A stretch of DNA of 64,000 nucleotides from an uncultured Eggerthellaceae bacterium (GTDB taxonomy: Bacteria; Actinomycetota; Coriobacteriia; Coriobacteriales; Eggerthellaceae), in the NCBI GenBank assembly GCA_903789375.1, contig CAIFEB010000004.1, positions 65,289 through 129,288 on the forward strand, read 5' to 3'. Positions 5,275-44,416 of this stretch are shown here, piece by piece. A program made the translations under genes and the position numbers. Position 1 is the stretch's first letter. Each line of letters starts with the position of its first letter. Below the pieces are notes generated by a model. It had not been told where the DNA came from and searched no databases. It worked only from the letters and a program-made list of their open reading frames with translations.

Positions 5275-5465
5275 CGCAGCAGCCCCTTCCTGGCGCACCG
5301 TCTGCGTTGCGCCGATTCGTTCGAGCGGATCTGCCCGGTAGGTTTCGCCGCACCTGTCCAATACTGTGATGGTAGCGCTCCGAAACGCCTGATTCCGCAC
5401 CGTTTCCGTTCCGTTGACACGGCGGGTGTGAGACGCCGTTCTTCGAAGCTGCGATGCTGCGTTGA

Positions 5466-5705: not shown

Positions 5706-5778
5706 TATTCATATTGTTACCACACGCTAACTTTCAACGAACGACATCCGATTGCGGGCAACCGCGGAGAGGACAGAG

Positions 5779-9762: not shown

Positions 9763-9817
9763 AACCGTTCCTATCCGGGCTTTGGGAAAGCCCCGTCACG
9801 TGCCGATTCGCCCGCGC

Positions 9818-10333
9818 CTACGAGCGGAACCGTTTGATCAGGTCCATCACCTCGTCGACGGCCTCAAGGTCGCCGGCCTGGATCTTCTCAACGACGCACG
9901 TCTCCAGGTGGTTCTTCAAGATGATGTCGGAAACGCGCCGCACGGCCGATTCTGCGGCCGCGAGCTGGATGAGCACGTCGCCGCAGTAGCGGTTGTCGTC
10001 GAGCATGTTCTTGACGCCGTTGAGCTGGCCGATCACCCGGTTGAGCCGCTTGTTCAGGTCGCGCTGCAGCTCCGCGCTGCGCTCGGTCTTCTTGTAGCGG
10101 CAGCCGCATCCGCACGCCTCGCCGGCGGCTTCCGCAGACGCGCCGCCGCCCGCTTCGGCGGAATCCTGCGCGGTCTCAGCGATGCTGGAGCAGGCACACG
10201 CGCTTGCCGCGGCGGTTTCGGCGGGCCGCTCGCCTTCGCAAGCTTCCGCCTGCGCGGCCGAGCCAGCTTGCGCGGCCGTCTCGGCCTGCGCGTCAACCGT
10301 CCCCTTCGAATTTTGGGTCAAGGTGTCTGCCAT
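9818..10333 (-). CDS. csoR: CsoR/RcnR-family copper-sensing repressor with Cys-rich low-complexity N-terminal extension
   Basis: C-terminal DUF156 core ...RYCGDVLIQLAAAESAV...NHLETC (Cys and His-x3-Cys ligands). N-terminal ~85 aa are Ala/Glu-rich with CACSS and CGCGC motifs. RBS GAGGAAG precedes ATG 10333. Lies immediately upstream of copA. Confidence 0.8.
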   Translation of the reverse strand: MADTLTQNSKGTVDAQAETAAQAGSAAQAEACEGERPAETAAASACACSSIAETAQDSAEAGGGASAEAAGEACGCGCRYKKTERSAELQRDLNKRLNRVIGQLNGVKNMLDDNRYCGDVLIQLAAAESAVRRVSDIILKNHLETCVVEKIQAGDLEAVDEVMDLIKRFRS

Positions 10334-27590: not shown

Positions 27591-27601
27591 CGCCCGCATG
27601 A

Positions 27602-27673
27602 GTCACTTTGCCTGGCATTTTGTCTCATTGTGGAGATGTCTCCACAATGAGACAAAATGCCAGGCAAAGTGAC
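27602..27673. repeat. 72-bp perfect palindromic repeat element, copy 1 (35-bp arms, 2-nt centre)
   Basis: gtcactttgcctggcattttgtctcattgtggaga-tg-tctccacaatgagacaaaatgccaggcaaagtgac. Lies between the convergent SNF2 and TorD-like genes. A near-identical copy occurs at 36484. Confidence 0.85.
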
Positions 27674-27691
27674 ACACATGTCGGAGGCCAG

Positions 27692-28294
27692 CTACTCGCA
27701 AGCAGCGACGCCCTGAACAGCCAGCATTGCCACGTCGGTGTAGAAGTCGGCACCGGAACGCAGCATCAATATGCGTGCAGGTTCCAACCACAGCCCCATG
27801 TGCTCGGTCGCGAACTGACGGGCCAACCGTTCCGCCGTCTTCCGTTGCGCCTGGTCGGGAGCCTGCAGCTGCTGACGTTTCAGATACGCCAGAAACGCGC
27901 ACTCCGCCGCCAGCGAATCCGGAACCAGAGCGTCCACCGCTTCGGGACTTCCCGAAAGCAGCAGATAATCGAATCCGACCGCATGATAGCAACGCAGCAC
28001 CTGGTCGGACCGGGGACCCTGCCCGTGGCCGTATTCTCCGTCGCGCAAGTAGCCGTACATGCAGTTCTCGTTCGCAGGCACGTAGTACGTCCCGCCCGGC
28101 ACCAGAAACCGGTCGAAGTACCGCTGACGCAGCTCTTCCGGCTCAGGCCAGTCGCCGCACGACAGGCCGATTGCATCCGCCACCGTTCGCACGTCGCTCA
28201 GCACCTTGTCGGACGGCTCGTTGAGCAGTGCTTCCGCGCACACCTCGAGCACGACCGCCGCCGTCTGCGCGATCTGCCTGGTCTCGTCATCCAT
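27692..28294 (-). CDS. TorD/DmsD-family redox-enzyme maturation chaperone
   Basis: 200 aa with ...RQRYFDRFLVPGGTYYVPANENCMYGYL..., resembling the TorD signature. RBS GGAGGT. It is the last gene of the molybdoenzyme operon. Confidence 0.6.
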   Translation of the reverse strand: MDDETRQIAQTAAVVLEVCAEALLNEPSDKVLSDVRTVADAIGLSCGDWPEPEELRQRYFDRFLVPGGTYYVPANENCMYGYLRDGEYGHGQGPRSDQVLRCYHAVGFDYLLLSGSPEAVDALVPDSLAAECAFLAYLKRQQLQAPDQAQRKTAERLARQFATEHMGLWLEPARILMLRSGADFYTDVAMLAVQGVAACE

Positions 28295-28336
28295 GGGATA
28301 CCTCCGATATACAAGAACGGGTACCGAATGAAGGAA

Positions 28337-28386
28337 GCGGGGAGTGCAGCGGAAAGGGGATGTCTTGCACTCCCCGCAGTTTTCGC
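28337..28386 (+). terminator. Strong hairpin + T-tract oriented for + strand inside a minus-strand operon (between the dmsC-like and torD-like genes)
   Basis: 12-bp stem gcggggagtgca / tgcactccccgc followed by AGTTTTCGC. Confidence 0.35.
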
Positions 28387-28532
28387 ACGTCTGGAAAGTT
28401 TACGGATGGGTCTACCGATTCCAGAGTGCGACAAATGGGCAAACCTTCAACGCGGCAGCGGGACACGGACGCGGGATGCCTCGTGCTCATGCGCTTGCAT
28501 CCCGCGATCCGCCCTGCCCCGTCGCCCGCACG

Positions 28533-29390
28533 CTACATGGTGACCGCGGGCACCGCCGCCAGAACCACCAGGTAGCGCAGGACGAAGCCACCGATGAGCA
28601 CGCAGACCTCTGCGGTTGCGACCGCGCACAGAGGCCGCGCCTTCTTAAGCGACATCATGTCGATGACACAGGGTACCGCCAAGCCGACCACGATCAGGCC
28701 GCCCCAGAACAGAGGCGCAAACGCGCCCTTCACGATGCCGTCGACGGTCGCCGCGCCTGCAACTGCCATAAGCCCCGTGCCCTGCAGGGTCACGACCAGC
28801 AGGATGACCACCAGGCAAACCTCGATGATGGGCAGGACCGCCACCGTCTTCTCGTGGAAGGTGACACTGCGCATCGAAGCACGGTCGGCGATCTGCCCGC
28901 CCAGAAGTCCTGCGGCGAAACCGGTGCTGATGGCCGACACCAAGAACAGGATCGGCAGCACGGCCAGGTTCCACAGCGGGTAGGGCTCGGCCACGCCCAG
29001 CAAAACGCCCGTGTACACTGCCACGCACAAGCCGGCGATGATGCACAGCCAATCGAGGACTTTGGGCGTCTTCCTCTTGATGGCGTACAGCAGAAAATCG
29101 ATGAAGCCCGCAACCAGGAACACGGACAGAATCGCAGTGCCCCAGGTCATGACGGACCCCCAGTTGCTGAACAGGAGGATGAACCGCAGCGGATTGCGAA
29201 AGCCAGCCTTTGCGTCCAGCATCAGCAGCATGGTTCCGATGCCCACGGCTAAGAGGCCGATGAGCATATCGGCCAGGCACGCCTTGCGCGCCGTGGGGTT
29301 CTTCCACCCCAAAATAGTGGCGAAGGTGAAGCAGCCCGCACCCATGCCGGCAAGGAACAGGTAGCCGACGATCACTTCGTTCCAAACCAT
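28533..29390 (-). CDS. DmsC/NrfD-like membrane anchor subunit
   Basis: MVWNEVIVGYLFLAGMGAG... with 8 TM helices. RBS GAGGGGAGG. Starts 2 nt after the Fe-S subunit stop. Confidence 0.75.
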   Translation of the reverse strand: MVWNEVIVGYLFLAGMGAGCFTFATILGWKNPTARKACLADMLIGLLAVGIGTMLLMLDAKAGFRNPLRFILLFSNWGSVMTWGTAILSVFLVAGFIDFLLYAIKRKTPKVLDWLCIIAGLCVAVYTGVLLGVAEPYPLWNLAVLPILFLVSAISTGFAAGLLGGQIADRASMRSVTFHEKTVAVLPIIEVCLVVILLVVTLQGTGLMAVAGAATVDGIVKGAFAPLFWGGLIVVGLAVPCVIDMMSLKKARPLCAVATAEVCVLIGGFVLRYLVVLAAVPAVTM

Positions 29391-29392
29391 GG

Positions 29393-30022
29393 CTACCTCC
29401 CCTCGTACTTCTTGTAGACGTTGCCGCCCTTATGGATGGCCGAAACGCGCTCACACGCCTCGGTGTCCTTCAGGCCGATGTAGCGCAGCGCCGTGTCCTG
29501 GCCCAGTTCCTCGTGCAAGATCTCGCCGCCGCCGACTTCCGCCAGCCGCTTGGAGATGTCGCTTTCCGGGTCGTTCAGATCGCCGAACAGGCGCGCCTTG
29601 GTGACGCAGGTCGCCACGCACGCAGGCAGAAGCCCCTGGGTGGTACGGTGGTAACAGAAGGTGCACTTCTCCACCTCGCCCGTCACGTCATCGCACCAGC
29701 GCACGGAATACGGGCATGCCACCATGCAGTACTTGCAGCCGATGCACCGGTCGCGGTCGACCAGCACAATGCCCGTTTCGGGGTCGATGTGCGAGGCCTT
29801 GGTGGGGCACACGCTCACGCACGGCGCGTCCTCGCAATGGTTGCACTGCTTGGGCACGTTGGCGCGGTAGACGTTGCCGCCCTTTTCCGCATCCCAGCTT
29901 TCGACCCAGGTGTTGAACTTTGTCAGGGGAATGTCGTTCTCCTGTTTGCAGGCGACCGCACACGCGTTGCACCCGATACATAAGGAGAGGTCGATCAGCA
30001 TTCCCAATCGTTTGTTGCTCAT
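29393..30022 (-). CDS. 4Fe-4S ferredoxin-type electron-transfer subunit (DmsB/PsrB-like)
   Basis: Four Cys clusters: CIGCNACAVAC, CNHCEDAPCVSVCP, CIGCKYCMVACP and CTFC...C. Starts 13 nt after the catalytic subunit stop. Confidence 0.85.
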   Translation of the reverse strand: MSNKRLGMLIDLSLCIGCNACAVACKQENDIPLTKFNTWVESWDAEKGGNVYRANVPKQCNHCEDAPCVSVCPTKASHIDPETGIVLVDRDRCIGCKYCMVACPYSVRWCDDVTGEVEKCTFCYHRTTQGLLPACVATCVTKARLFGDLNDPESDISKRLAEVGGGEILHEELGQDTALRYIGLKDTEACERVSAIHKGGNVYKKYEGR

Positions 30023-30035
30023 AATCCCTACCCCC

Positions 30036-33000
30036 TTATGCCTTCTCGATCTTGTACATGCCGCCGTTGCGCCCAGGAGCTGCGGCGTTGTTGTCCGACA
30101 GATAGTACAGGGCATCGGTGATGGTGGGGTCGCGCATGGTGACCAGATGAATGCCTGCGGCGATGGCATCGTTGCCGTCGACCGTCTGACCGTCGACCTC
30201 CCACGACTTGGCGCCGTAGAAATGGTGCCCGTAGCCGTACGCCACGGCGAACGTGGTAGGCGCCGTGCCGGCGCGCACCATAGCCTCGCCGACCATAATG
30301 TCGCCGCCCGCGCTCGTGACCTTGACCGTGTCGCCGTCGGAAATGCCCAGCTTGGCTGCATCGTCGATGTTGATCTCGATGTAGTTGTGCTTGCACAGAT
30401 CGCGCATGATGGGGCTGTTGGACTGCATGGAGATGGAGCGGAAGCGCGGCTTGTAGTTGGTCGAGACGAAGGGGAACTCCTCGCGCGAGAAGTGGTCCTC
30501 GAGCAGCGACTGATCCGCCATCAGCTGGCCTGCCGCGTTGAGCGAGGCCGTCGGGCGCTTGCCACTGTAGGGGTTCACGCTCGTGCCGATGATCTCGGAG
30601 TACAAACGGCTTTCGAACGTCTGCGCGAAGGCGCTGCGACCGTCCTTGCCCTGGGCCATCTCGATGGGCCAGAACCGGCCGCCGCGGGACAGGACTTTCA
30701 GCACCTTGGGCCACTCCTCGGCGCTGACAGCGTTCTTCCAGGCCGCAGGTAGATTGTCGAGCGCCTGCAGCTTGATCTCATCGTCGGTGATGTCATCCAC
30801 GGGCGTCGTGTCGTAAGCCAGGTTGGCCACGGCCTTCAAGAAGAGGTCGCACGCATCGTTGAAGGGATGCATGGTGCCGTCAGCGTCTGCGATGGCGTTG
30901 TCGCCGAAACCCGGTGCGCCGCACGCTTTGGCGACGTCGCAGATGAAGGCCTCGTAGCTGGCATGGCGGCCGCCGGAGATCTCGACGCTTTCGGGCGTCT
31001 TAATGGGCCAGCGCACGGTGTTGCCGCGGCCGGGCCAGTAGCCCTCGTTCGTCACCACGCCGAAACTCTCATAGGGCGTCGTGTCGGGGATGATGTAGTC
31101 GGCCATGGACGCCATCTCGCCCATGAACACGTCGCACGCCAGGAACAGCGGAACCACATCCGGGTCGCACAAACGCGCGCGTACTTCGTCGTTGAATAGT
31201 CCCGGCGAGGCTTCGATGGTGTTCGACATCCAGGTGAGCAGGATTTTGGCCTTATAGGGGTACTGGTTGACAATCGACGTGAGAGCCTGGTTGTCCGAAA
31301 CCGTCGTGCTGGGGAACCACGGAAGCAGGGGCTTGGGATCGGCTTCGCCCTGCGCCTTACGGTTCTTGTACTCGTCGGTCTTGGTCCATGCGCAGGCATT
31401 GCGGCTGATGTAGGTGGCGTTCTTGGTGGAAACGGACGGCTTGCCCGCAACCGTGGCGATCTTGTAACGGGTACCATCGCTGGTCGTTGCCGCGGAATTG
31501 CGGCGCGGTACGGAGCCGCCGACCATCTGGTTGGACCCGATCATAGCGTTGAGCAGGCGGTAGCCCATAGTCGCCTCGGCGCCGTTGACAACAGCCGTGC
31601 CGCCCATGGAGTTTGCCGACGCCTTGACGCCGTGGGAGGTGAACTCCTTAGCCGTGGCCTCCAGGACGCTCACGGGAACGCCCGTGATCTGGGCGTATTC
31701 GTCCATGGTCTTCTGCATGACGGAATCTCGGAACATCAGGAAGGCCGTGCGAACCTTGACGCCGTTGACCTCGCCTTCGAATTCCAGGTCGCCCTTGCTG
31801 CACTTGGTGTGAAGCGCCGGTTCGCCCGTCTCCGCGTCGATGACGACGTATTGGACGATGGCCGCGCCCTTGGAATCGGTCTCACCGGGGTCTTCGATGC
31901 CGGCGTCGGCTGCCCGCATGAACTTGCGATAACTTGCAGAAGATTCGTCGACGATGACCAGGTGCGTCGCGTCGGTGTAGGACGCGTAGCCGCCTGCCAC
32001 GCCGGCTTGATAGTTGGGCAGCGAAAGGAACTCGGTGTTATACGCTTTGTGTTCCATCATCCAACGGACGAGCGCACTGCCGAACGCGTCGTTGGTAGCC
32101 GTGCGGATGGGATGCCACGTGATGTTGGGCGTCGTCGGGGTCACGCATCCGTTAGCTAAAGCAGGGTCGAACACGTCCATCTTGCAGCCCTTGTGGAGCG
32201 CTGCCATGGCGCGTTTGCTGATGCCCTGGAAGCTCTTGCCAGTACCGCCGGGGAACTGTCCCATGAACAGGACGTATTCCGCATTCTCCAGGTCGGCGGT
32301 GGTGTCCTTGGTGCCGGACTCAGATAGCGCACGCGCTATTGCTGAGCCACCTCAACTGGCGCCGTGGCCGTAGTTGTTGAGCGTGCCGAAGCACGAGGCG
32401 AAACGACCCGCCGTCGCACCCGCGCGCCCATCACCGCGACCGCCGAGCATGACCAGCTGATTGGACTTGGGACCCAAGTTGGGTTTGTCCGCATCCAGGG
32501 GCGTGGTCGTGTCGTGGATTGCCTTGAAACCTTCGATTTCGCGGTCTTCTCCCAGGTCGGCGAAGAGCTTGCCGCCCTCGGTGACCTCTGTGATCAGCTG
32601 ATCCCAGCTGATGGGCTTCCATTTTCCGGACCCGCGCTTGCCCGCGCGCTTGAGCGGCTGGGTGATGCGGTTCGGCTGCGAATAGGCGTCGAACGTCGCG
32701 TTGCCGCGGCCGCAGACGGTCCCCCGCAGCTGGTTGCCCTTGCCGTCCGCAAAGCTCATGGACCGATAGGCTTCCTCCAGCGGCTCTTCGAAGCTCAGGT
32801 ACGGGAACGAATTGTTGGGATTGTACGGGTTGCCGCACACGTTGAGCACACGGCCGGTCTCGCGGTCGATTTTGACGCGATTGCCGCACGAGCTGTAGCA
32901 GCCCAGGCAGGCGCTGTAGCGCACGACCACGTCCGGGTTGACCGTGACCTTACCCGTCTTGGGGTCGACCTTGGCTTCTACCGGTTGCCCCTGTTTTTGC

Positions 33001-33131
33001 TTTGGAAACTCAGCGTCGGCAGCGAAAGCGCTCGTGTCCTGCGCTGACAGTCCCACGCCTACGGTCGCCAGCGCGCCGAGCGCGCCTGCGGCTTTGACGA
33101 AGCTGCGTCGATTGAAGCTGAATTCTTCCAT
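30036..33131 (-). CDS. TAT-exported bis-MGD molybdopterin oxidoreductase catalytic subunit with an in-frame TGA (predicted selenocysteine) at 32352-32354
   Basis: RBS AGGAGAAAGGAGGGG precedes ATG 33131. TAT motif NRRSFVKAAGALGALA, N-terminal Fe-S motif CLGCYSSCGNRV...C, and molybdopterin domains. ORFs 32352..33233 and 30036..32264 are the same frame, separated only by a TGA in the context GHGAS-U-GGSAIA (compare FdhF RVUHGPSVA and NapA RLCMASAVA). Confidence 0.8.
32319..32346 (-). other. SECIS-like stem-loop 5 nt downstream of the in-frame UGA
   Basis: mRNA: UGA GGUGG CUCAG-CA-AUAGCGC-GU-GCGCUAU-CUGAG. Bulged stem with an apical G/U-containing loop. Confidence 0.55.
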
Positions 33132-33255
33132 AGCCCCTCCTTTCTCCTGACGAACAAGAAGTGGTGGCGTCCGCTGGCCGACGGCGCCGCGTTCTTCAGA
33201 AGGGAGGCGAGTCCTCATACTCGCCTGGTGCACCTGTCCCCTTATGAGGGCACTA

Positions 33256-33282
33256 TATCATAAATCATAGGGATTTATGATA
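33256..33282. promoter_or_regulatory. Palindrome TATCATAAATC-N5-GATTTATGATA in AT-rich promoter region of the molybdoenzyme operon
   Basis: 11-bp perfect arms. The half-site TATGATAC recurs at 33443 and in the GntR promoter. Confidence 0.45.
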
Positions 33283-33494
33283 CTTGTTATACAAACCTAT
33301 GATTCTATTTTTGGATAACAGGATGATGAAATGATGATTTTATAAGCGTGAACTGGGATAATGATAACTCTCGTCACCCGATGACGAAACTCATCAATTG
33401 TCAAGTTAGTAAACACATGTACTGATACTGGGGCGAATTCGAAGCCAGGCATATGATACTTGGCTCTATCGACAGACGTGACCTGCACCCGCCA

Positions 33495-33532
33495 GTGTGC
33501 GAAAAATCGACGATATTGTATTTTTCGCACAC
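33495..33532. promoter_or_regulatory. Palindrome GTGTGCGAAAAAT-N12-ATTTTTCGCACAC
   Basis: 13-bp perfect arms, just downstream of the AAA ATPase gene and upstream of the molybdoenzyme operon. Confidence 0.4.
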
Positions 33533-33568
33533 TGACAAAGGTGTCTCACCCGCGCCGTTGCCCTCTCT

Positions 33569-34870
33569 TTATTCCCATATCGACTTATTTCCAATAGCGT
33601 AAAGCGGCACGTTGCGCATCCAATTCTGGTCGCGGTAAGACGCCAGCGAAAATCGCCTGCAGTTCATGTCCGCGAAGCGCTTATTGAAAGCAGCCAGGCT
33701 CTTTGAACGCAGATTCTCTTCCGCTTTCACTTCGATGGGATAGATTCTCCCCTCGTCCTGAACCAGAAAGTCAATTTCCCCACTCGAATTTTCGGCAGAC
33801 CAGTAGAAGGGGTCCAGCCCGCACGACGAAATCAGCTGCTGACACACGTACTGTTCCGTCAAAGCGCCCTTGAACTCGGTAAACACACGGTTTTCCTCGA
33901 GCACCGCGGACGGATTCAAATCACACAGGGCGCCCAGCAGCCCAACATCGACCAAAAAGACCTTGTAGGCGACCGCATCGGGATACGAAGACAGCGGAAG
34001 TCCCGGCTTGCTCACACGCCGCACCTTGCGGATAAGGCCCGCTTGCTCAAGCCACACCAGGCATTCTTCGAAATCCGACGCTCGGGCGCCCTTGCGGACC
34101 TGGCCGAACACGAATTTCTTATTCTCTTTGGAAAGGTGCTTCGGTATGGAATCCCACACGAGCATCGTACGAGCCAGAAGGCGCGGAGGTATGTGCTTTG
34201 CGAAGTCGCGCACGTAGCCATCGAGGATTTCGTACTGGATGGCACGGGCAGTCTTGAAATCGCCCCCGTCTGCAAAGGCAACCACCGCTTCAGGCATGCC
34301 TCCGACAAGGTAATACTGTTTCAACAGATCGGAAAACCTTCTCTCAAGCGCATCGATAGTAGACGTATCGCCCGTCCGAACAAGATCGGCGAACCGCTTA
34401 TTATCGGTAGCGTCCAGAAATTCCAGGAAGCTGAGCGGATACAAATCCAGCATGTTCACCTTGCCAACGGGGAAACCCGTGCCCTCGGTTGCGGAAACGC
34501 CCAGAAGCGACCCAGCGGCTGCGACAGCATACTGGGGCGCGTCTTCGCAGAAATATTTAAGCGACGTGATGGCTCGAGGACACGATTGCACCTCGTCCAG
34601 CACGATGAGCGTACGATCCGGCCGGATATCGCAATCAAGCTCAAGGGACAACGCAGCGACAATCCGCGGGATGTTGAAATCGGAATCGAAGAAGCCTCGC
34701 GCCACGGAATCGCTGTCGAGGCTGACGTATGCGACATTTTCGAATTCGGTCTTACCGAATTCCTTGAGCAGCCAGGTTTTCCCGACCTGGCGGGCACCGT
34801 TCAGAACGAGGGGCTTTCTCCTGGGGCTGTGTTTCCAGTCTATGAGACGTTCCATCAGGGTTCTGTCCAT
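33569..34870 (-). CDS. AAA+ ATPase of the AAA_14/DUF4143 type (COG1373-like)
   Basis: Walker A LVLNGARQVGKT and Walker B LIVLDEVQ, with a C-terminal DUF4143-like region. AT-richer than its surroundings. ATG 34870; the track's TTG 34885 lies inside the palindrome. Confidence 0.7.
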   Translation of the reverse strand: MDRTLMERLIDWKHSPRRKPLVLNGARQVGKTWLLKEFGKTEFENVAYVSLDSDSVARGFFDSDFNIPRIVAALSLELDCDIRPDRTLIVLDEVQSCPRAITSLKYFCEDAPQYAVAAAGSLLGVSATEGTGFPVGKVNMLDLYPLSFLEFLDATDNKRFADLVRTGDTSTIDALERRFSDLLKQYYLVGGMPEAVVAFADGGDFKTARAIQYEILDGYVRDFAKHIPPRLLARTMLVWDSIPKHLSKENKKFVFGQVRKGARASDFEECLVWLEQAGLIRKVRRVSKPGLPLSSYPDAVAYKVFLVDVGLLGALCDLNPSAVLEENRVFTEFKGALTEQYVCQQLISSCGLDPFYWSAENSSGEIDFLVQDEGRIYPIEVKAEENLRSKSLAAFNKRFADMNCRRFSLASYRDQNWMRNVPLYAIGNKSIWE

Positions 34871-34882
34871 GGTATCGCCTTT

Positions 34883-34936
34883 CAATTTTACGTCCTTAAA
34901 AATGTATATTACTACATTTTTAAGGACGTAAAATTG
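34883..34936. repeat. AT-rich perfect palindrome with 24-bp arms, overlapping the 5' end of the AAA ATPase gene
   Basis: caattttacgtccttaaaaatgta-tattac-tacatttttaaggacgtaaaattg. Confidence 0.8.
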
Positions 34937-35005
34937 ATTGATACAACAATTTTCAGGCTGATGATTCCGAATGAATCCGCCCGAGTCAACTGTCTCATGC
35001 GATTC

Positions 35006-35932
35006 CTATTTCGCCACGTCATCCAAGCCGCTGAAGGCATCGGACAGGTCGCTGGGCAGCACGACCACGCCGCCGCGTTCCTTGACGCTGTCGGACACCA
35101 GGTTCATAGCACGCAGCTTGAGCGCCCCGTCTTCCTGGCGGTACTTGCGGGCGGCGTCCACGTACATATCCGCAATCTGCTCTTCGGATTCGGCAATGAG
35201 CATGCGAGCGTTGAACTCGCGTTCGGCCCGCGCTTCGATCGACATGGATTCCTGCAGGTCCTCGGGGATTTCGATGTTGCGGATTTCCACGCCCAGGATG
35301 TTGACGCCCCAGTCAGTGGTCTTTTTAGCCAGAGTGTTGAAGATTTCCTCGTCCAGCTGACGCCGGCGCATGCCCATCTCCGATGCGTTGAGTCCGCCGA
35401 TGGCGTCGCGCAGCGTGGTCTGGGCGACCAGGAGCACGGCCTCCCCCACCTCGCTCACTTCGAAGCAGGCATCTTTGGCGTTCCACACGACCCAGAACAA
35501 GACGGCGTCCACATCCACGGGGACCAAGTCGGACGTGAGCGTTTTCTCCGCCTTGACCGTGGTCGTGCGCAGACGCATGTCCACGGTCGAGGTCACGTAC
35601 TCGATGAAGGGGATGATGAACACGGCGCCCGGACCGCTTACACGGTTGAACTTGCCGAACCGCGTGACCACGGCGTTTTCCCACTCCATAACCACGTGGA
35701 AGCTCATCAAAAACATGAGCGCCGCCGCGACGCCCGCAAGGAAGAGCGGCACTGACTGCAGCTGCCAGGCTATCGCGGTGAAGATCAGAAACACGATTGC
35801 GGATGCACAGGCGCGAAGCGCATTGGCTCCCACGCGACTGACCTTGAGCATACGGATGCCATGCGGCTCAACCTCTTCGGATTGGTCGCCTTTTTCAAGG
35901 CTGGGATCCACGAACGCTTCCTTTTCGGCCAT
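35006..35932 (-). CDS. SPFH/band-7 (stomatin/HflC-like) membrane protein
   Basis: N-terminal TM segment, then VVTRFGKFNRVSGPGAVFIIPFIEY...DLVPVDVDAVLFWVV... SPFH core. RBS GAGGGGG. Confidence 0.8.
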   Translation of the reverse strand: MAEKEAFVDPSLEKGDQSEEVEPHGIRMLKVSRVGANALRACASAIVFLIFTAIAWQLQSVPLFLAGVAAALMFLMSFHVVMEWENAVVTRFGKFNRVSGPGAVFIIPFIEYVTSTVDMRLRTTTVKAEKTLTSDLVPVDVDAVLFWVVWNAKDACFEVSEVGEAVLLVAQTTLRDAIGGLNASEMGMRRRQLDEEIFNTLAKKTTDWGVNILGVEIRNIEIPEDLQESMSIEARAEREFNARMLIAESEEQIADMYVDAARKYRQEDGALKLRAMNLVSDSVKERGGVVVLPSDLSDAFSGLDDVAK

Positions 35933-36029
35933 GACTACCCCCTCGTACTACCGCCTGCATCGCAGCGCTTGGGACGGTTCCGCTTGCAACGTCGTCGGCG
36001 AATTTCCGCAGCGCATTGCAGCGTCGCCG

Positions 36030-36413
36030 CTAGCCCTTGTAGTTTTTCAGCTGCTCCTCGAAACGAAGCTTGAGCTCGTCGGACGTCATGTTGGCATCCT
36101 TTGCCGCCTCCATCAGCTCGTTTAAGATCAGGTCGACGGGCGATTCCGGAAGATCCATGGTCTCGGGGGACACCTCCGCTACGTACGACCGCCGACCGCG
36201 GCTGCTCACGATCAACCCGTCCAGCTCCAAGTCCTGGTAGACCTTGTGGACAGTGTTGTAGTTGATGCCCAGCTTGTTTGCCAGCTCGCGCACCGTCGGC
36301 AGGACGTCTCCTGCCTTCAGTTTGCCCGACTTGATCAGAAACACCAGATGGTTGCGCACTTGCACCCAGACAGGGACACCCGAATGCTCGTCTATGCTGA
36401 ATGTATCGACCAT
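36030..36413 (-). CDS. GntR-family (YtrA-like) transcriptional regulator
   Basis: wHTH motif: VPVWVQVRNHLVFLIKSGKLKAGDVLPTVRELANKLGINYNTVHKVYQDL. Start at MVDTFS; the track ORF extends to 36476. Confidence 0.75.
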   Translation of the reverse strand: MVDTFSIDEHSGVPVWVQVRNHLVFLIKSGKLKAGDVLPTVRELANKLGINYNTVHKVYQDLELDGLIVSSRGRRSYVAEVSPETMDLPESPVDLILNELMEAAKDANMTSDELKLRFEEQLKNYKG

Positions 36414-36441
36414 GCGCCTTCCACTTCGTTTGCGGGTCTCT

Positions 36442-36463
36442 GTATCATACAGGTACATGATAC
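36442..36463. promoter_or_regulatory. GTATCAT-N8-ATGATAC palindrome upstream of the GntR gene (candidate auto-operator)
   Basis: Perfect 7-bp arms. Shares the TATGATAC half-site with 33256-33282 and 33443. Confidence 0.45.
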
Positions 36464-36483
36464 TCGCGGCAACCACCTACGAG

Positions 36484-36565
36484 CATGAGACACTTTGCCT
36501 GGCATTTCGTCTCATTGTGGAGATGTCTCCACAATGAGACGAAATGCCAGGCAAAGTGTCTCATG
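36484..36565. repeat. 82-bp perfect palindromic repeat element, copy 2 (40-bp arms)
   Basis: catgagacactttgcctggcatttcgtctcattgtggaga-tg-tctccacaatgagacgaaatgccaggcaaagtgtctcatg. Differs from copy 1 at two positions per arm, mirrored on both arms. Confidence 0.85.
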
Positions 36566-36585
36566 CCGTATGCGCCCCTGGCGGC

Positions 36586-37668
36586 TTATTTCGGCGTCAG
36601 CGTCGCCTTTCCGTTTCCGAAGAAGCCAGCTCCCGCCTCGTTGGCGTAGATGGTCCTTCCCGACGACGTCGTTCCCAGCACTTTCGTGTAGGAGGGTGCC
36701 GAACCTACGTAGACGGTAGCAGCACCGTTGGCGTTCTGTCCGAATCGGCCCATGAATTCCCACGTGGTGCTGTTCTTCTGCTGGACCGACCAAAGACCGT
36801 CCCAGCTGTCGGGAACGTCGACGGTGAAGTAGTCGCACTCGAAGTCGACGGCAGCTGCCCGGGCCACCTCTTCAGCGGCCTGTTGGCGAGCGGTCTCCTC
36901 CTCGGCAGCCTTCTGCGCTGCATCCGCTTCGGCTTTGGAAGTTGCCTCGTCGCGCACCGCGGTCGCCTTGTCCTTGGCGGATGCCACGGTTGCGCTTTCC
37001 ACGCCCGCAGCGGCAAGAGCGTCCGTCGCTGCGGAAATCTGATCATCGGTTACCTTGGATTCGTCCACCGTCTGATACTGGAAATTGGCCTCCGACGCAT
37101 CGAGCGTCGCATCAACCGCAGAATCCTTACCGACGGTAATCCCAAACGACATGCCCTGAGAAGCAAGGTAGGAACCGTCACCTGCGATGACGTCCGCCGC
37201 AGGCGCCACTTGGTAGCTACCGGGCGCAAGCGAAAGCCCCGTCCCCTCCGGCGTAACGGCGACGACTTTGCTCACGGCAGCGCCGCCCTCCTCCGTTCCC
37301 TCGACCGACAACGGGATCAGGACCCCGTCCGCAGAAGCTCCTTCCGGCAAGGTTACCGCGACGGCAATCGCGCGTTGCCCGTGGGCCTTCTGGTCGGATG
37401 CGTGCTGCGTCCACAGGACGGTGCAAAGGACGCAGACCGCCGCGACGATTGCCACGATCGCGGCAATCACCCAAAGCTTATCGCCGGAAGACTTCGCCTT
37501 CGCGACGGGGAAAGCCGGCTGGCTCGAAACGGGCACGCTTGCGCGCCTTTTCGCTCGAGCAGGCGTAACAGTGGAATAACCGTTCTCGTTCTGCGGAGAT
37601 GGGTTTCCGCACGAGGGACAGAATGCTGCACCGGAGGGAACTTGCTTTCCGCAAAAGGGACACTTCAT
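36586..37668 (-). CDS. Zinc-ribbon (CPxCG) N-terminus, single TM, and Ala/Glu-rich extracytoplasmic domain protein
   Basis: MKCPFCGKQVPSGAAFCPSCGNP..., then a TM helix LWVIAAIVAIVAAVCVLCTVLW, then a ~280-aa domain. The long ORF N-terminus upstream of 37668 looks non-coding. Confidence 0.6.
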   Translation of the reverse strand: MKCPFCGKQVPSGAAFCPSCGNPSPQNENGYSTVTPARAKRRASVPVSSQPAFPVAKAKSSGDKLWVIAAIVAIVAAVCVLCTVLWTQHASDQKAHGQRAIAVAVTLPEGASADGVLIPLSVEGTEEGGAAVSKVVAVTPEGTGLSLAPGSYQVAPAADVIAGDGSYLASQGMSFGITVGKDSAVDATLDASEANFQYQTVDESKVTDDQISAATDALAAAGVESATVASAKDKATAVRDEATSKAEADAAQKAAEEETARQQAAEEVARAAAVDFECDYFTVDVPDSWDGLWSVQQKNSTTWEFMGRFGQNANGAATVYVGSAPSYTKVLGTTSSGRTIYANEAGAGFFGNGKATLTPK

Positions 37669-37754
37669 AAACGAATTACCTTCCAAAAAATCAAGCAAAA
37701 AAATGCCGGGATGCCACGGCAATGAAATGTTGCGCGCACAAACACAGCAGCCGA

Positions 37755-39362
37755 CATGATACACGAAACAGGGCAACCCGACCGGAAAGAGCACGGCTGC
37801 CGCGCATCCCGCCGCTACCGCCTCCGTTCCACCGTTCGAGCGCAAGCCGCAACGGCAGAACGGATATCTTCCCTGCTCATAAGCCTGCGACCGATGGGGA
37901 TGCCCGCCGTTTCCTCGATGGCGTCCGTCACTTCCGTCCGGTAGTTGAACACATACCAGTTCTCGTCCAGGTAGGCCCCCTCCAAAGCAAGCAGCGCATC
38001 GGCGACCTGCGCCGCGTTGTAGCGCCAGCCCATGTCGCGACGGAGAACGCGCAGAGCGAAGAAGGCGGCGTAGCATATGGCGAAATGGGCTTTCATGTGA
38101 ATGCGGGCGTCCACCTCGTAGGGCATGGCGATGAAATCCGCCGGGATGACCTGGAAGGGCTCGTGGACGCGCCAAAGCTCGCGGTAAACGTTGAAGACGG
38201 CGGCGTCCGACCGCGCCGTCTCGTTGGAGACGATGCAAAAGACCTGCGAGGCGCCCGCTCCCGTCGCCCTGAAGGCGATCTGCTTGACCGCCGTCGGTCG
38301 CGCAGCCTCGCTCATGCCCGCACACTCACCCTCTCCGAAAAGGTCTCCGGCCAATACCGAGCGGGATTTGATCCGATAGCTCCCACTGCGAGCCATCGCG
38401 TACCCCGTCTCGTCGCGCGCCCACGAACCCGCTTCGACCGACATCGCATCCGCCGGCTGCAGAAAGACGAACCCGTCCCCTTGGGCGCAAACCGCATCCA
38501 TGAGCCAGGATGCCTGGGGAACCGTCGTCGCGACCAAAGTCACATGCCGCGCATCGAATTCCGCCTTCACGTCCTGAACCAAGTCCGCCACCTGGGCTGC
38601 CATCATTTCGCGCGGCACGATCCGATACGCCAGGGGAATCCCGTCGGCATCGATCGCCAGGCACAGACGTCCCCACTCCCCCGCGGCCATCTCATCGGGC
38701 CCTCCGGCGGATATCGTCTGCGACCAAGGGAAGGTGTAGTTGCTCAGAACCACGCGCACGTCAGACAGGGCACGATCTCCCCGCAGCTGCTCGTACCGGC
38801 GGTTGAGCTGGTCCACAAGGATGCGGTCGCCTTCCGCAAACCGCTCGAACGCCCGATAGACCGCCTCGTAAGAATCGCCGCAGGCCCGCGGGAATTTGGC
38901 GCGGTTATTCCAGGTTTCGCGCACGGGCACGGCGTGCATCATGCGCGCGGCGACCACCAGGTCGAAAATCCGCCCTGCATCGCCTTTGAACAGGGAGCTG
39001 CACCCGAACGCGTCCAGATAGCCCAAGGCGACGACGGCCCCCAAGGACACGGCGTTCGGCGTGTCGGACGAGATGACCGCGTTGCGGGCGATGGTCAGGT
39101 GCACCGGCTCGTCGCGCTCGTGCGCCCGCCGATTCATCTGGTCCACGACGGCGCGAAAGTGGGCGATAGGGTCGTCGTACCTGGTCGCGAGCTCGTCGAC
39201 ATATCCCAAAGACTCCACGGTCTTGGATTTGACCTTCCCCTGCGCCCGAAAGTTCTGCGCGATCGACAGGTACACCCGCCCGTTCTTCTTGCTCTGCTTC
39301 AGGTACACGGTTTCCCCCCTTCCTTGAAAATGAGACAGTGTCCCGTAGCTGTTTGTCTCATG
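37755..39362 (-). mobile_element. IS1634-family (IS4 superfamily) insertion sequence, ~1.6 kb, with imperfect terminal inverted repeats; ends approximate
   Basis: Contains transposase 37815..39308. Left end reads catgatacacgaaacag and right end (reverse complement) reads catgagacaaacagc, matching 15 of 17. No target-site duplication is evident. Confidence 0.55.
37815..39308 (-). CDS. IS1634-family transposase (DDE)
   Basis: Characteristic N-terminus MYLKQSKKNGRVYLSIAQNFRAQGKVKSKTVESLGYVDELATRYDDPIAHF. GTG start with RBS AAGGAAGGGGGG. Confidence 0.7.
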   Translation of the reverse strand: MYLKQSKKNGRVYLSIAQNFRAQGKVKSKTVESLGYVDELATRYDDPIAHFRAVVDQMNRRAHERDEPVHLTIARNAVISSDTPNAVSLGAVVALGYLDAFGCSSLFKGDAGRIFDLVVAARMMHAVPVRETWNNRAKFPRACGDSYEAVYRAFERFAEGDRILVDQLNRRYEQLRGDRALSDVRVVLSNYTFPWSQTISAGGPDEMAAGEWGRLCLAIDADGIPLAYRIVPREMMAAQVADLVQDVKAEFDARHVTLVATTVPQASWLMDAVCAQGDGFVFLQPADAMSVEAGSWARDETGYAMARSGSYRIKSRSVLAGDLFGEGECAGMSEAARPTAVKQIAFRATGAGASQVFCIVSNETARSDAAVFNVYRELWRVHEPFQVIPADFIAMPYEVDARIHMKAHFAICYAAFFALRVLRRDMGWRYNAAQVADALLALEGAYLDENWYVFNYRTEVTDAIEETAGIPIGRRLMSREDIRSAVAACARTVERRR

Positions 39363-39475
39363 TTTCCCTACGTTTCCCTACAATTTACTATATTTCTCGA
39401 GTTCGCCTCCGCTCTTCCCTACCATGAACGCCAGTGTTCTCATCCTCAAGCGAAAGGAAACCCGTGGAAATCACG

Positions 39476-39856
39476 ATGCTGGCCGGCAAAATCCACCGTG
39501 CGACGGTGACCCAGGCCGCGCTCGACTACGTCGGCTCTATCACCATCGACGAGGACCTGATGGACGCGGCGCACATCAGGGAGTACCAACGCGTCGAAAT
39601 CGCCGACGTCGACAACGGCGAGCGCCTGGCGACCTACGTCATCGCAGGCCAGCGCGGATCGGGAACCGTCTGCCTTAACGGCGCCGCCGCCCGGTGCGCC
39701 CAGTGCGGCGACAAGGTCATCATCATGGCCTACGCCCAGTTCACGCCCGAGGAAGCATCCCAGCACAAGCCCGCCGTCGTCTTTGTGGACGACGGTAACC
39801 GCCCCATCCGCATCACCTCCTACGAAAAGCACGGCCGCTTGGAGGACATGGACTAA
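39476..39856 (+). CDS. panD: Aspartate 1-decarboxylase
   Basis: [25 protein letters not shown]... (pyruvoyl Gly-Ser site). Alternative GTG start at 39464. Confidence 0.85.
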
Positions 39857-39925
39857 CAGCCATCCTCCAACGGCACCCCCATCGCAAGCGCACCGTCATC
39901 ACCATTCGACCCAAAAGGAGTCCCC

Positions 39926-40774
39926 ATGCAAATCGCCACCACCGTCGCAGAAGCCAAACACATCACCCGCGCCTGGAAGCGCGAAGGACAAACAATCGGC
40001 CTTGTCCCCACCATGGGCTACCTGCACGAAGGCCACGCGAGCCTAATCGAGCGCGCCCGCCGGGAAAACGACCGCGTGGTCGTCTCGGTTTTCCTGAACC
40101 CTATCCAGTTCGCCCCTACCGAGGACTTGGACCGCTATCCCCGCGACTTCGACCGCGATTGCAAGCTGTGCGAAGAAATCGGCGCCGACCTGGTCTTTCA
40201 CCCCGATCCTGCGGAGATGTACCACGATCCCCACGCGTACGTGAACATCGACCTTCTCTCCGACACCATGGACGGCGCTGCCCGCCCCATCCACTTCAAG
40301 GGCGTTTGCACCGTCGTCTCCAAGCTCTTCAACATCACCCAGCCCGATAACGCCTACTTCGGTCAGAAGGACGCCCAGCAACTGGCCATCGTGAAGAAGT
40401 TCGTAGAAGACCTCAACTTCGACGTCAAAGTGAACGGCTGCCCCATCGTCCGCGAGCCCGACGGCCTTGCCAAGAGCAGCCGCAACACCTACCTGTCGCC
40501 GGAGGAGCGCGCCGCAGCGCCCGTCCTCTTCCGCGCCGTTCAGCGCGGGCGGGAAATCATCGCACCCAACATGAAGGCATCCGAGCTGGAAGCCCAGATG
40601 AAGGCCGTGCTTGCCGAAGAGCCCCTTGCCGACACCGAATACGTGACCGCCGTGGACGCACTCACCATGCAGCCGGTCGAGACCATCGACCGCAACGTCT
40701 TGGTGGCCATGGCCGTCCGCATCGGGACGACCCGCCTGATCGACAACTTCAGCTACGAGCTTCCGCGCGCCTAA
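39926..40774 (+). CDS. panC: Pantoate--beta-alanine ligase (pantothenate synthetase)
   Basis: ...GLVPTMGYLHEGHASLI... HIGH-like motif and overall PanC length. Confidence 0.9.
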   Translation: MQIATTVAEAKHITRAWKREGQTIGLVPTMGYLHEGHASLIERARRENDRVVVSVFLNPIQFAPTEDLDRYPRDFDRDCKLCEEIGADLVFHPDPAEMYHDPHAYVNIDLLSDTMDGAARPIHFKGVCTVVSKLFNITQPDNAYFGQKDAQQLAIVKKFVEDLNFDVKVNGCPIVREPDGLAKSSRNTYLSPEERAAAPVLFRAVQRGREIIAPNMKASELEAQMKAVLAEEPLADTEYVTAVDALTMQPVETIDRNVLVAMAVRIGTTRLIDNFSYELPRA

Positions 40775-40803
40775 CCGCCGGCGCCAACCCTGAGAGGACT
40801 TCC

Positions 40804-41775
40804 GTGAAAACCATCGCAAACCTGGGGAATCTGCTGACGCGTTTCGTCGCCGTCATTATCATTCTCTTCTCGCTCTGGGCCTTTGCCACGCCCTCCGTCT
40901 TCGCCTGGACCACCCGGTACACCTCGATTTTCCTGGGTGTCATCATGTTCGGGATGGGGCTTACCATCAAGCCCGCCGATTTCCGCGTGGTTTTCACCCA
41001 CCCCAAAGAGGTCCTGATCGGCGCCGTCTGCCAGTACACGATCATGCCGCTTTCCGCCTGGCTCCTTGCCACGGTGCTGCAGCTGCCGACCGACATCGCC
41101 CTGGGCGTCATCCTGGTGGGCTGCTGCCCGGGCGGAACGGCGTCCAACGTCATCACCTACATCGCCCGCGGCGACGTGCCCCTGTCCGTGGGGATGACCA
41201 TCGTGTCGACTCTGATAGCACCCCTGGTCACGCCCGCATTGGTCTACCTAATCGCCGGCGCCTGGGTGCAGGTGTCCTTCATCGCCATGCTGAAATCGGT
41301 GGTGGAGGTGGTCCTTCTGCCCGTGGTCTGCGGCATCGGAGTGAACGCTTTCGCCTCGCAGGCGATACGGAAGATCACACCGATTCTCCCGCTGATCAGC
41401 GTCTTCGCCATCGCCCTCATCGTTGCCGGCATCACGGCCAACAACACGCAGAAGATCATCGAGAGCGGCGTTTTGGTGCTCGCGGTCGTGATCCTGCACA
41501 ACGCCATCGGGATGGCCTGCGGATACGGCGTCGCGCGCCTGTTCAAGCTGAACTACGCGAAAACGACTGCCGTCGCCATCGAGGTGGGCATGCAGAACTC
41601 CGGCCTCGCCGTGACCCTTGCCGCCGCCAATTTCGCGGCGAACCCCCTGGCCACGCTCCCGGGCGCGATCTTCAGCGTCTGGCACAACATCGCCGGCTCC
41701 CTCTTCGCCAGCGTCCGCAGCAAACGCGCCCTGGACGAGGGCGCGGCGCCTGCGCCCAGCCCCGATGCCGCTTAA
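40804..41775 (+). CDS. Bile acid:sodium symporter (BASS) family transporter
   Basis: 323 aa with ~9 TM helices and BASS-like motifs (GCCPGGTASNVITY). GTG start with RBS AGAGGA. Confidence 0.75.
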   Translation: MKTIANLGNLLTRFVAVIIILFSLWAFATPSVFAWTTRYTSIFLGVIMFGMGLTIKPADFRVVFTHPKEVLIGAVCQYTIMPLSAWLLATVLQLPTDIALGVILVGCCPGGTASNVITYIARGDVPLSVGMTIVSTLIAPLVTPALVYLIAGAWVQVSFIAMLKSVVEVVLLPVVCGIGVNAFASQAIRKITPILPLISVFAIALIVAGITANNTQKIIESGVLVLAVVILHNAIGMACGYGVARLFKLNYAKTTAVAIEVGMQNSGLAVTLAAANFAANPLATLPGAIFSVWHNIAGSLFASVRSKRALDEGAAPAPSPDAA

Positions 41776-41801
41776 TTGTGGAGGCGTCAGGCAGTCTGGA
41801 T

Positions 41802-41835
41802 CATTGTGGGGGCTGACAGCTCAGCCCCCACAATG
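41802..41835. terminator. Perfect 15-bp-stem hairpin cattgtgggggctga-cagc-tcagcccccacaatg between convergent genes
   Basis: Read directly. No strong U-tract. Shares the CATTGTGG...CCACAATG outer motif with the 72/82-bp palindromic elements. Confidence 0.4.
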
Positions 41836-42135
41836 CGGTGACTGCTCTGTTGCGCTAGTTGCCCAGCTCGTCGGACGATGCGGGCGCTCCCTTCTCGTCA
41901 GCGGCAGACGCTCCTTGCGCTTGCGCCTCCAAACCCTCGTCCGAACCGTCCTGCTTTGCCGCGGGCTCTTCCGCGCCGCCCTTGCCCTTGCCAACCGGCT
42001 TGAGCGACGGCAGTCGACCTGCCGTCATTCCCCTGCTGATTCCGTGCATGAACATGATGCGCCTCCCTATGGAGCCCCACCTACCGGAGCGCAACGCGGG
42101 CCGCGCCCAACAGCACGCAACCCGTAAACGCTTTC

Positions 42136-43797: not shown

Positions 43798-44416
43798 AAG
43801 TATGTCCCTCCTCAGTTCGAATGGGCCCCGTTCGCTTTCGACGGCAGCCCCCGAGGCGACCGGGAAGCCACAGGACGATTCGACTCTTCGGATTCCATGG
43901 AGCCGGATGCCGCCTCCCCCTTGGCATCCGACAACGCGCCATCCGCCGCGCTGCAAAAAAAAACGGCCAGACAAGACGTTCATCTTGTCTGGCCGTCGAT
44001 TGCAGCAATCGAGTCCCGTGATCCGAAGGGCGTAATCCCTGATGCAAGCCCTTCTTGCCCGGCGCCCTAAAGGGCACCACCGATGTAACTAGGAGTATAG
44101 AAGTCTCCGAGAACGACCGTCAACGAAAAACAACTGGATTTCGGTACCGCTCGCTTGGCCGATGACCTGTCAAGGGCGACAAAGGAGTCGGACAAAGGGC
44201 TACGACCCCTTTGTCACCTCTCGCCAACCCAAGCACCCCGCTCCCGTATCAAAATCTCACTCCGTTTCTTCTGAGGAATCCCGGCGGGGCGCAGCACGGA
44301 CCGCGCGCATGCTTTACCATAACGACCGTATCAAATCGATTCCGCGGTTATGCCTTCGGCATCTGCGGCAGTTCAAAACGCAGCGCCTTTCGCGCCGCAA
44401 ACAGGAGAGGAAACCC

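Follow-up and report, generated by a model that had tools for sequence, protein, structure and literature searches.

Two near-identical palindromic repeats in a strain-specific island of an uncultured Eggerthellaceae bacterium: a candidate lineage-restricted hairpin repeat

Two long palindromes of nearly identical sequence lie some 8.8 kb apart in a 64,000-nt stretch of DNA from an uncultured Eggerthellaceae bacterium (contig CAIFEB010000004.1 of assembly GCA_903789375.1, positions 65,289 to 129,288; hereafter the window, by which we mean this whole stretch), and they raise the question of what kind of element they are and how they came to stand where they do. The answer that we favour, and to which we would give roughly an even chance, is that the pair, named E1 and E2, represents a lineage-restricted, non-coding hairpin repeat akin to repetitive extragenic palindromic (REP) sequences and miniature inverted-repeat transposable elements (MITEs), which arrived as a passenger of foreign DNA and now has the role of a 3'-end hairpin. 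An original prediction, made from the letters of the window, had reported two such palindromes, and direct reading together with a repeat finder located both at the sites indicated:

27594..27684, no strand assigned: E1, palindromic element, 4-12 nt past the SNF2 stop and 8-18 nt past that of the NarJ-like gene, where the island described below begins on its left
36479..36570, no strand assigned: E2, palindromic element, 15-19 nt past the Zn-ribbon stop, at the seam of blocks A and B

E2 consists of two arms of 41 nt (36483-36523 and 36526-36566) which are 100% complementary and enclose the dinucleotide TG, 84 nt in total (36483-36566) and not the 82 nt (36484-36565) first given for it. The perfect length of 72 nt predicted for E1 stands (27602-27673, with arms 27602-27636 and 27639-27673 around TG); its full arms, 27599-27636 and 27639-27676, are 38 nt long and 97% complementary. 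The central TG is not palindromic and has the same orientation in both copies, so that, strictly, each element is a pair of inverted arms, of 35 and 41 nt respectively, around TG (sequence of the centre: CATTGTGGAGATGTCTCCACAATG). When folded, the stems run on past a bulge or internal loop, to approximately 27594-27684 for E1 and 36479-36570 for E2. The folds reach -77 to -89 kcal/mol as RNA (z = -14.5 to -17.4 against shuffled sequences) and -47 to -55 kcal/mol as DNA, a single strand of which forms one uninterrupted stem of 34-41 bp. Elsewhere in the window and in ~90 kb of its relatives the largest perfect arms measure 16-17 nt, one AT-rich window palindrome with 25-nt arms excepted.

The two elements are copies of one repeat and not independent terminators. 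They are near-identical over 76 nt when both strands of both copies are aligned, and the 17-mer CACTTTGCCTGGCATTT occurs four times, once in each arm of E1 and E2, where 0.03 occurrences are expected. As predicted, the differences between the copies are compensatory: there are two per arm, GAGTCAC/GTGACTC against GAGACAC/GTGTCTC and TTTTG/CAAAA against TTTCG/CGAAA, and both are mirrored in the opposite arm. At the outer ends, the right end of E1 (CACACATG) is degenerate relative to the CTCATGC of E2, and the outer stem of E1, CCGCATG/CATGTCGG, is imperfect; the stem of E2 is prolonged by TACG(A)/CGTA, its flanks extending the palindrome. Each arm contains in turn a sub-palindrome, ATGAGAC-N17-GTCTCAT, centred on TGCC-T-GGCA. 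Since the arm holds this sub-palindrome and the same unit also occurs singly (U3, below), we read E as an inverted dimer of a ~31-nt hairpin unit, joined via TGTGGAGA-TG-TCTCCACA; the 31-mers characteristic of E are CACTTTGCCTGGCATTTYGTCTCATTGTGGA.

Both copies occupy the intergenic gaps that had been proposed for them, as judged by gene coordinates. E1 separates convergent genes, with stop codons at 27588-27590 (an SNF2 helicase) and 27692-27694 (a NarJ-like chaperone), while E2 lies between the stop of a minus-strand Zn-ribbon gene (36586-36588) and the promoter and start (36413) of a GntR gene, 7-11 nt upstream of the latter's -35-like box. Two further hairpins bear on the extent of the family:

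39330..39361, plus strand: U3, one hairpin unit on its own, ATGAGACAGTGTCCCGTAGCTGTTTGTCTCAT, matching an E arm (ATGAGAC-N17-GTCTCAT) at 24 of 32 positions
41802..41835, no strand assigned: H3, hairpin with a 15-bp perfect stem, CATTGTGGGGGCTGA/TCAGCCCCCACAATG, 27 nt past the panS stop

U3 belongs to the E family. It is intergenic, between a gene for a 497-aa protein and panD, in a divergent promoter region with no 3' gene end. The pattern ATGAGAC-N(10-25)-GTCTCAT is found three times in the window against 0.00 expected in shuffled sequences, and the looser TGAGWC...GWCTCA four times against 0.07, all of these occurrences being within the island. No U3 was found in the orthologous 497-aa/panD intergenic regions of loci L037, L039 and L047, which are divergent overall. 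The existence of H3 had also been noted correctly; its suggested relation to E was not supported by alignment (score 10 against a null of 7.0 +/- 1.3 with a maximum of 15, not significant), although ATTGTGG is rare in these genomes and clusters around H3, and it is possible that H3 is a degenerate family member. Its 15-nt arms start with CATTGTGG, with an extra ATTGTGGAG at 41775-41783, and it stands at the seam between the panDCS and amidohydrolase blocks, the homology of relatives stopping at 41737.

As regards copy number, the genome is covered here by the 64-kb window, which holds two full E copies and one unit. The 47-kb core part of the window contains no copy of E or of its unit, and the further copies for which the original prediction had proposed a search of related genomes did not appear in ~300 kb of related loci (46 loci fetched), identical contigs of the Logan assemblies aside. 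A scan of the GTDB representative genomes with both outer arms (TGCCTGGCATT-N20-50-AATGCCAGGCA) returned no E family member and nothing from the Coriobacteriia; its yield was an unrelated palindromic family of the Elusimicrobia and a few singletons. IMG/VR viral and JGI metagenome contigs gave 0 matches to the arm pattern and to the central core, blastn of E2 against plasmids and phages gave none, and the whole island returned nothing relevant from plasmids and phages. No part of the window matched Rfam at the gathering threshold, and sub-threshold matches over E2, to generic miRNA-precursor hairpin models, were dismissed as noise. Within the window and the loci scanned, E and U units are thus confined to the recombinase-free island. 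We regard E as a previously uncatalogued intergenic palindromic repeat, of a family known from this island alone.

The setting of the two copies was examined through the following segments:

27593..44300, no strand assigned: strain-specific island of 16.7 kb, absent from L032, L033, L043, L044 and L034
27692..36464, minus strand: block A, a conserved GntR-SPFH-molybdoenzyme module
36586..44300, no strand assigned: block B, comprising a Zn-ribbon membrane protein, a 497-aa protein with panD-panC-panS, and an amidohydrolase with its leader

The prediction had the pair delimit an 8.8-kb island. The elements do lie in strain-variable DNA, missing from five related contigs, but the variable segment runs from 27593 to ~44300, leaving E2 internal and the right edge without a copy. 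Four of the contigs, L032, L033, L043 (GCA_036453785.1) and L044 (GCA_036453845.1), are conspecific with the window (96-97% nt identity) and the fifth, L034, comes from a congener (88%). All five are co-linear with the window up to 27592 and again from 44404, SNF2 being followed directly by thrS; finer alignment places the right junction near 44300, at CGCATGCTTTACC. The anticipated coincidence of breakpoints with palindromes across strains was borne out for E1, which starts 2-6 nt from the left breakpoint (27592/27593) in the five comparisons, and failed at the right edge, where neither a copy nor a remnant of E was found. An apparent direct repeat, CGCATG...CTTTRCC, shared by the left end and the right junction was considered as an att core and rejected, as 17-23% of random windows align equally well.

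Pairwise identities group the window with L032, L043 and L044 and leave L034 outside; with L034 as the outgroup, a single gain of the island in the window's lineage is the parsimonious history. The GC content of the island is 60.9%, against 64.6-68.1% in the core, and in tetranucleotide composition it stands at a distance of 0.256 from the core, which core chunks of equal size do not reach (0.188 at most). The best non-self matches of its PanC and molybdoenzyme are 90-92% identical, and the flanking genes are 96% identical to those of conspecifics. No PanC of 91-99% identity was found for the conspecific metagenome-assembled genomes (MAGs). The island is thus compositionally foreign and may have been imported from an unsampled source. 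As a lead to the donor, the Zn-ribbon protein (36586-37668) was discarded, since none of 1.8 billion representatives exceeds 42% identity to it. The annotated genes in and next to the island include neither a recombinase nor a transposase. In the relatives, SNF2 is followed by 65-200 nt with an ordinary terminator hairpin, a stretch that the window does not have. The island and island-free states look like alternative alleles between conserved flanks and not like the outcome of a clean site-specific insertion.

Since its blocks occupy other places in other Eggerthellaceae, the island is, on the sequence comparisons available, a mosaic, with E1, E2 and H3 at three seams. The pair does enclose a conserved GntR-SPFH-molybdoenzyme block: both elements stand within ~15 nt of the limits of block A homology, which in L035 and L045 stops at 36464 and 36467, respectively. 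Block A occurs without E elements in two other Eggerthellaceae, beside NfeD/Band_7 and cydDC-like genes in L035/L036 and beside tRNA-Thr in L045. The 497-aa/panDCS block is contiguous with copA-csoR in further Eggerthellaceae (L037, L039-L042, L047), whereas in the window copA-csoR (6904-10107) and the panDCS block (37863-41737) are 27.7 kb apart. Both L035 and L036 end 51-58 nt past the NarJ-like stop, a hint of a repeat or hairpin at the end of the block there; positions 1-23 of L036 (Logan ERR2282092_27891) are Illumina adapter, CCTACACGACGCTCTTCCGATCT.

How, then, could two copies differ from one another and yet each remain symmetric? Two independent mutations falling by chance on mirror positions are very unlikely for each difference. 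The original prediction took the mirrored differences to imply selection for the hairpin or a mechanism that copies it; however, mirrored variation is a general property of hairpin repeat families, and in the unrelated Elusimicrobia family mirrored deviations from the consensus number 39 against 17 confined to one arm. That family (loci L001-L029, mainly MAG JACRDQ01) comprises at least 25 copies of ~60-70 nt, of the form GGTGCCTGGCATTGTATTGATTGTATTTTT...loop...mirror, and has the 11-mer TGCCTGGCATT in common with E, probably by chance. Because one of the differences in E (T-A to A-T) has no wobble intermediate, and because pairing in E is far more perfect than an RNA function would need, arm-to-arm template switching fits the mirrored differences, seen in only two copies, better than stepwise compensatory selection does. 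Quasipalindromes and short inverted repeats provide documented cases of arm homogenisation by template switching (PMC7202029, PMC8604942). Such quasipalindrome correction accounts for symmetric copies that differ mutually, including the T-A to A-T flip; it is nevertheless a mutational process and no element family, and was shown in E. coli and yeast and not in this organism (PMC7202029, PMC8604942).

On the reading of E as a passenger hairpin repeat, the copies most likely came in with imported DNA, in which repeats of this sort are found at 3' ends of genes; the positions of the copies at seams would reflect this 3'-end placement and possibly also the fact that recombination tends to break at such repeats. 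When transcribed, in the tails of minus-strand operons or from the plus strand of SNF2, a perfect hairpin of 34-41 bp may act as a U-tract-independent transcription stop or insulator and as a 3'-end structure, and its long double-stranded RNA would be a substrate for RNase III. E1 would stand in for the terminator hairpin that follows SNF2 in island-free relatives. In the DNA itself, intramolecular template switching (quasipalindrome correction) would carry a change in one arm over to the other or remove it, and by virtue of such copying within a copy each palindrome could stay perfect while the two drift apart.

REP sequences and bacterial interspersed mosaic elements (BIMEs), with their RAYT (REP-associated tyrosine transposase) enzymes, SMAG and the Elusimicrobia family are likewise extragenic, non-coding and hairpin-forming and lie just past stop codons; the extragenic position, typically at 3' gene ends, that marks REP/BIME is that of both E1 and E2, and repeats of this type also carry small differences mirrored in both arms. 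REP-type repeats are mRNA 3'-end structures and recombination breakpoints. They are, however, imperfect and of ~20-40 nt, whereas E spans 84-92 nt with perfect arms of 34-41 nt; they have a conserved 5' GTAG-like tetranucleotide, whereas E ends in GCATGAG and has no GTAG; they are dispersed in tens to hundreds of copies, against two to three known copies of E in one island; and the dimer-of-hairpins architecture of E is unlike that of REP. No RAYT (a Y1 HUH transposase) is found among the island genes and the other annotated open reading frames (ORFs) of the window.

MITEs and MITE-flanked units, such as Correia elements and integron mobilisation units, are small and non-autonomous with terminal inverted repeats, a likeness which E shows trivially. 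As in such units, two copies bracket a gene block placed differently across lineages. U3 may be a presence/absence difference between orthologous intergenic regions, which are, however, divergent overall; the DNA holding E1 and E2 is wholly lacking in the relatives. Unlike MITEs, E is all inverted repeat without internal sequence. No direct repeats suggestive of a target-site duplication occur beside E1, beside E2 or outside the pair, where the flanks extend the palindrome. A parent insertion sequence with E-like ends is absent from the window, and no matches were obtained in plasmids, phages, viral contigs or JGI metagenomes; nor is there a sign that the bracketed block moved together with its E copies.

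Several considerations weigh against the passenger-repeat reading. Firstly, family membership is judged from two full copies and one monomer. Secondly, passenger status alone leaves unaccounted for why E1 is the first sequence of the island and why E2 is at an exact block seam. Thirdly, because E has no U-tract, classical intrinsic termination is not predicted for it. In addition, instability would be expected of a perfect palindrome of 84 nt in bacteria that possess SbcCD. Finally, as short-read assemblies break at such palindromes, the lack of E in MAG contigs is weak evidence. Should the reading nonetheless be true, E would represent a family of hairpin repeats not catalogued before, from an Eggerthellaceae lineage with poor sampling, and a marker of foreign DNA, as well as an example of arm homogenisation keeping 84-nt palindromes perfect. 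It would also serve as a warning that short-read assemblies break at E, such that islands bounded by it are systematically fragmented or lost from MAGs.

A rather unlikely alternative, though one with several observations on its side, is that the E elements are joints of a cassette-like or composite mobile structure, with blocks brought in, excised or inverted by recombination at E. The agent would be a recombinase or transposase encoded elsewhere, E then being a MITE of terminal inverted repeats only, or illegitimate recombination mediated by the hairpin or cruciform. The position of E1, 2-6 nt from the left breakpoint, agrees with this, as does that of both elements within ~15 nt of the limits of block A, itself found in three contexts in three lineages. 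Read on the minus strand, the order is block B-E2-block A-E1, each block ending on its 3' side in a palindrome, and the palindromic nature of E makes the two copies simultaneously direct and inverted repeats of each other. In L045, moreover, block A abuts a different, duplicated palindrome: downstream of tRNA-Thr(CGT), in the interval 5305-5941 of this JGI contig, two 33-nt palindromes, TGGGACACTCTACCCC-T-GGGGTAGAGTGTCCCA, lie between the tRNA gene and the block (5428-5460 and 5909-5941) and flank ~450 nt of non-coding DNA with another palindrome of 27-nt arms. The likeness of an E arm to the left half of this 33-nt palindrome (11/16) is compatible with chance by a rough estimate, and the 33-nt palindrome itself has no matches in the window.

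Recombination at E nevertheless lacks its usual signatures: no recombinase or transposase is annotated in or next to the island, target-site duplications are not recognisable around E1, E2 or the pair, and the right edge has neither copy nor remnant of E. The 65-200 nt that follow SNF2 in relatives were replaced and not retained, which points to allele replacement via flanking homology in place of site-specific insertion. Crossing-over inside E would furthermore yield asymmetric hybrids, whereas both copies are symmetric, and the other genomes with block A (L035/L036, L045) do without E. The mobility by foldback replication that the original prediction had entertained finds as little support, given the missing transposase or recombinase, the missing target-site duplication and the absence of more copies in the collections scanned. 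Two specific forms of movement were also rejected. If block A were a transposon whose terminal repeats are as long as an arm, and had entered a palindrome already in place with a 2-bp TG duplication, this would need coincident variants in the target halves and the transposon ends. A Logan contig (L030) that equals the E1-E2 interval might suggest an excised unit, but is explained by the way in which a k=31 de Bruijn graph handles palindromes, the other contigs of that run being short.

Integron attC sites resemble such joints: in their tandem arrays, too, each block has an imperfect-to-perfect palindrome at its 3' end, and attC sites recombine as folded single strands. They possess, however, an R''/R' core (RYYYAAC/GTTRRRY) and extrahelical bases, neither of which is seen in E with its GCATGAG/CTCATGC ends; no intI, attI or integrase is found near E among the annotated genes; and attC cassettes are mostly single promoterless ORFs, whereas the blocks of the island are multi-gene with promoters of their own. 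Protelomerase targets (telRL-type) are perfect palindromes that an encoded protelomerase resolves into hairpin ends on a linear replicon. E has a perfect palindrome, but its central dinucleotide lacks self-complementarity, and the two copies lie within a contig that runs co-linear with chromosomal contigs of relatives; the annotated genes of the 64-kb window include no protelomerase-like gene. A sigma-54 promoter reading of CTGGCAT-N-... was discarded by eye, as it does not have the GG-N10-GC spacing.

It is also improbable, in our estimate, that E1 and E2 are simply two strong terminators or insulators, one of them bidirectional, made alike by local duplication or gene conversion, with neither a family nor a link to the island. 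Both do stand immediately downstream of stop codons, a position in which perfect inverted repeats are strongly enriched in bacteria (PMC13155455), and only two full copies were found in all collections scanned. Intrinsic bidirectional terminators and stabiliser hairpins of 3'-untranslated regions share with E their location past stop codons and between convergent genes and their strength on both strands, and E1 replaces the native SNF2 terminator. An intrinsic terminator has a G+C-rich stem of ~5-14 bp and a U-tract, whereas the stem of E is several times longer, perfect and repeated at a second locus; its arms of 34-41 bp are two to three times those of other hairpins in ~150 kb of the lineage, the one AT-rich 25-nt palindrome aside. 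No T-run follows E1 or E2 on either strand, and neither is among the terminator-like sites listed in 27000-45000. The monomer U3 is situated in a divergent promoter region and not at a 3' end, and there is no obvious route by which an 84-nt intergenic piece would be copied to a place 8.8 kb away without flanking sequence.

A bolder extension of the joint hypothesis, which we hold to be distinctly doubtful, makes the palindromes the joints of an undescribed stacking of operon-sized blocks at an SNF2/thrS hot spot of the Eggerthellaceae. Gut Coriobacteriia shuffle dozens of paralogous molybdoenzyme operons. Under stacking, the palindrome at a block end would be at once an orientation-agnostic recombination substrate, as a folded hairpin or cruciform, and a transcriptional insulator, and the work would be done by an enzyme encoded elsewhere or by host repair of hairpin-induced breaks. 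If E were a recombination joint, the assembly of operon-sized cassettes at palindromes, without a linked integrase, would give gut Coriobacteriia a new way to exchange gene blocks.

It is highly improbable that the palindromes arose in assembly, as foldback joins formed where a short inverted repeat occurs: perfect symmetry is the expected product of assembler foldback, and an independent Logan assembly (ERR4183115; L030 = window 27644-36512, L031 starting at 36537) breaks at both elements with no contig across a centre, but its contigs carry exactly k-1 = 30 nt of the right copy-specific arm variant at the inner and outer flanks, which speaks for real palindromes since a k=31 de Bruijn graph gives exactly that, two distinct variants, each on both flanks of its own copy, would be hard to get as an artefact, and the outer part of E1 is imperfect, as in real decaying sequence.

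The gene order around the elements is SNF2 helicase (24150-27590, plus), E1, then on the minus strand NarJ-like chaperone, NrfD, 4Fe-4S protein and molybdopterin oxidoreductase, followed by AAA_14/DUF4143, SPFH, GntR, E2, a 360-aa Zn-ribbon membrane protein (36586-37668, minus), the 497-aa protein (minus), panD-panC-panS (plus), the amidohydrolase (minus) and thrS from 44418 (plus). The individual components are as follows:

27692-28294, minus strand: NarJ-like chaperone, block A
30036-33131, minus strand: TAT/Sec molybdopterin oxidoreductase with an in-frame TGA, block A, with the 4Fe-4S and NrfD genes
33306..35023, minus strand: secondary insertion in block A, of low GC (52%), absent from L035 and L045
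33569-34870, minus strand: AAA_14/DUF4143 gene, PADLOC candidate defence system PDC-S01 (E = 8e-171)
35006-35932, minus strand: SPFH, block A
36030-36413, minus strand: GntR, block A
37815-41775: 497-aa protein with panD-panC-panS, block B
42136-44123, minus strand: amidohydrolase with leader, block B

Some of these genes carry features of their own. By its protein matches the window belongs to an Eggerthellaceae MAG lineage. The SNF2/SNF2_assoc helicase (24150-27590), whose protein cluster includes MEE8722311.1 ('Eggerthellaceae bacterium'), matches the defence helicase models DpdE and ZorD over its C-terminal helicase domains only, and no partner genes of DpdE- or ZorD-type systems were seen near it. 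An in-frame TGA at 32352-32354 (minus strand; ORFs 32352-33233 and 30036-32264), within NNYGHGAS*GG, divides the molybdopterin oxidoreductase in two. As full-length homologues have a Cys at the aligned position (NNIGHGATCGG) and hairpins lie directly downstream of the TGA, the protein is probably a selenocysteine enzyme of ~1035 aa, and many database homologues of ~745 aa are probably truncated likewise.

Upstream of the amidohydrolase gene, on the minus strand, a promoter-like site (44123-44094) is followed ~100 nt on by a strong stem and T9 terminator (43997-43953), directly before the gene. The leader (44123-43953) has no Rfam match even at E <= 1; its layout would suit an attenuator or a riboswitch-like element. 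Candidate operators were noted in the GntR promoter (GTATCAT-N8-ATGATAC, 36442-36463, conserved in L035 and L045) and upstream of panD (tandem GTTTCCCTAC GTTTCCCTAC, ~39362-39381, conserved in L037 and L047). The AAA_14/DUF4143 gene is inserted between the SPFH and molybdoenzyme genes, and its insertion carries perfect palindromes of its own, one downstream of the gene (33493-33534, 15-nt arms) and one that is AT-rich (34882-34937, 25-nt arms), just upstream of the start codon.

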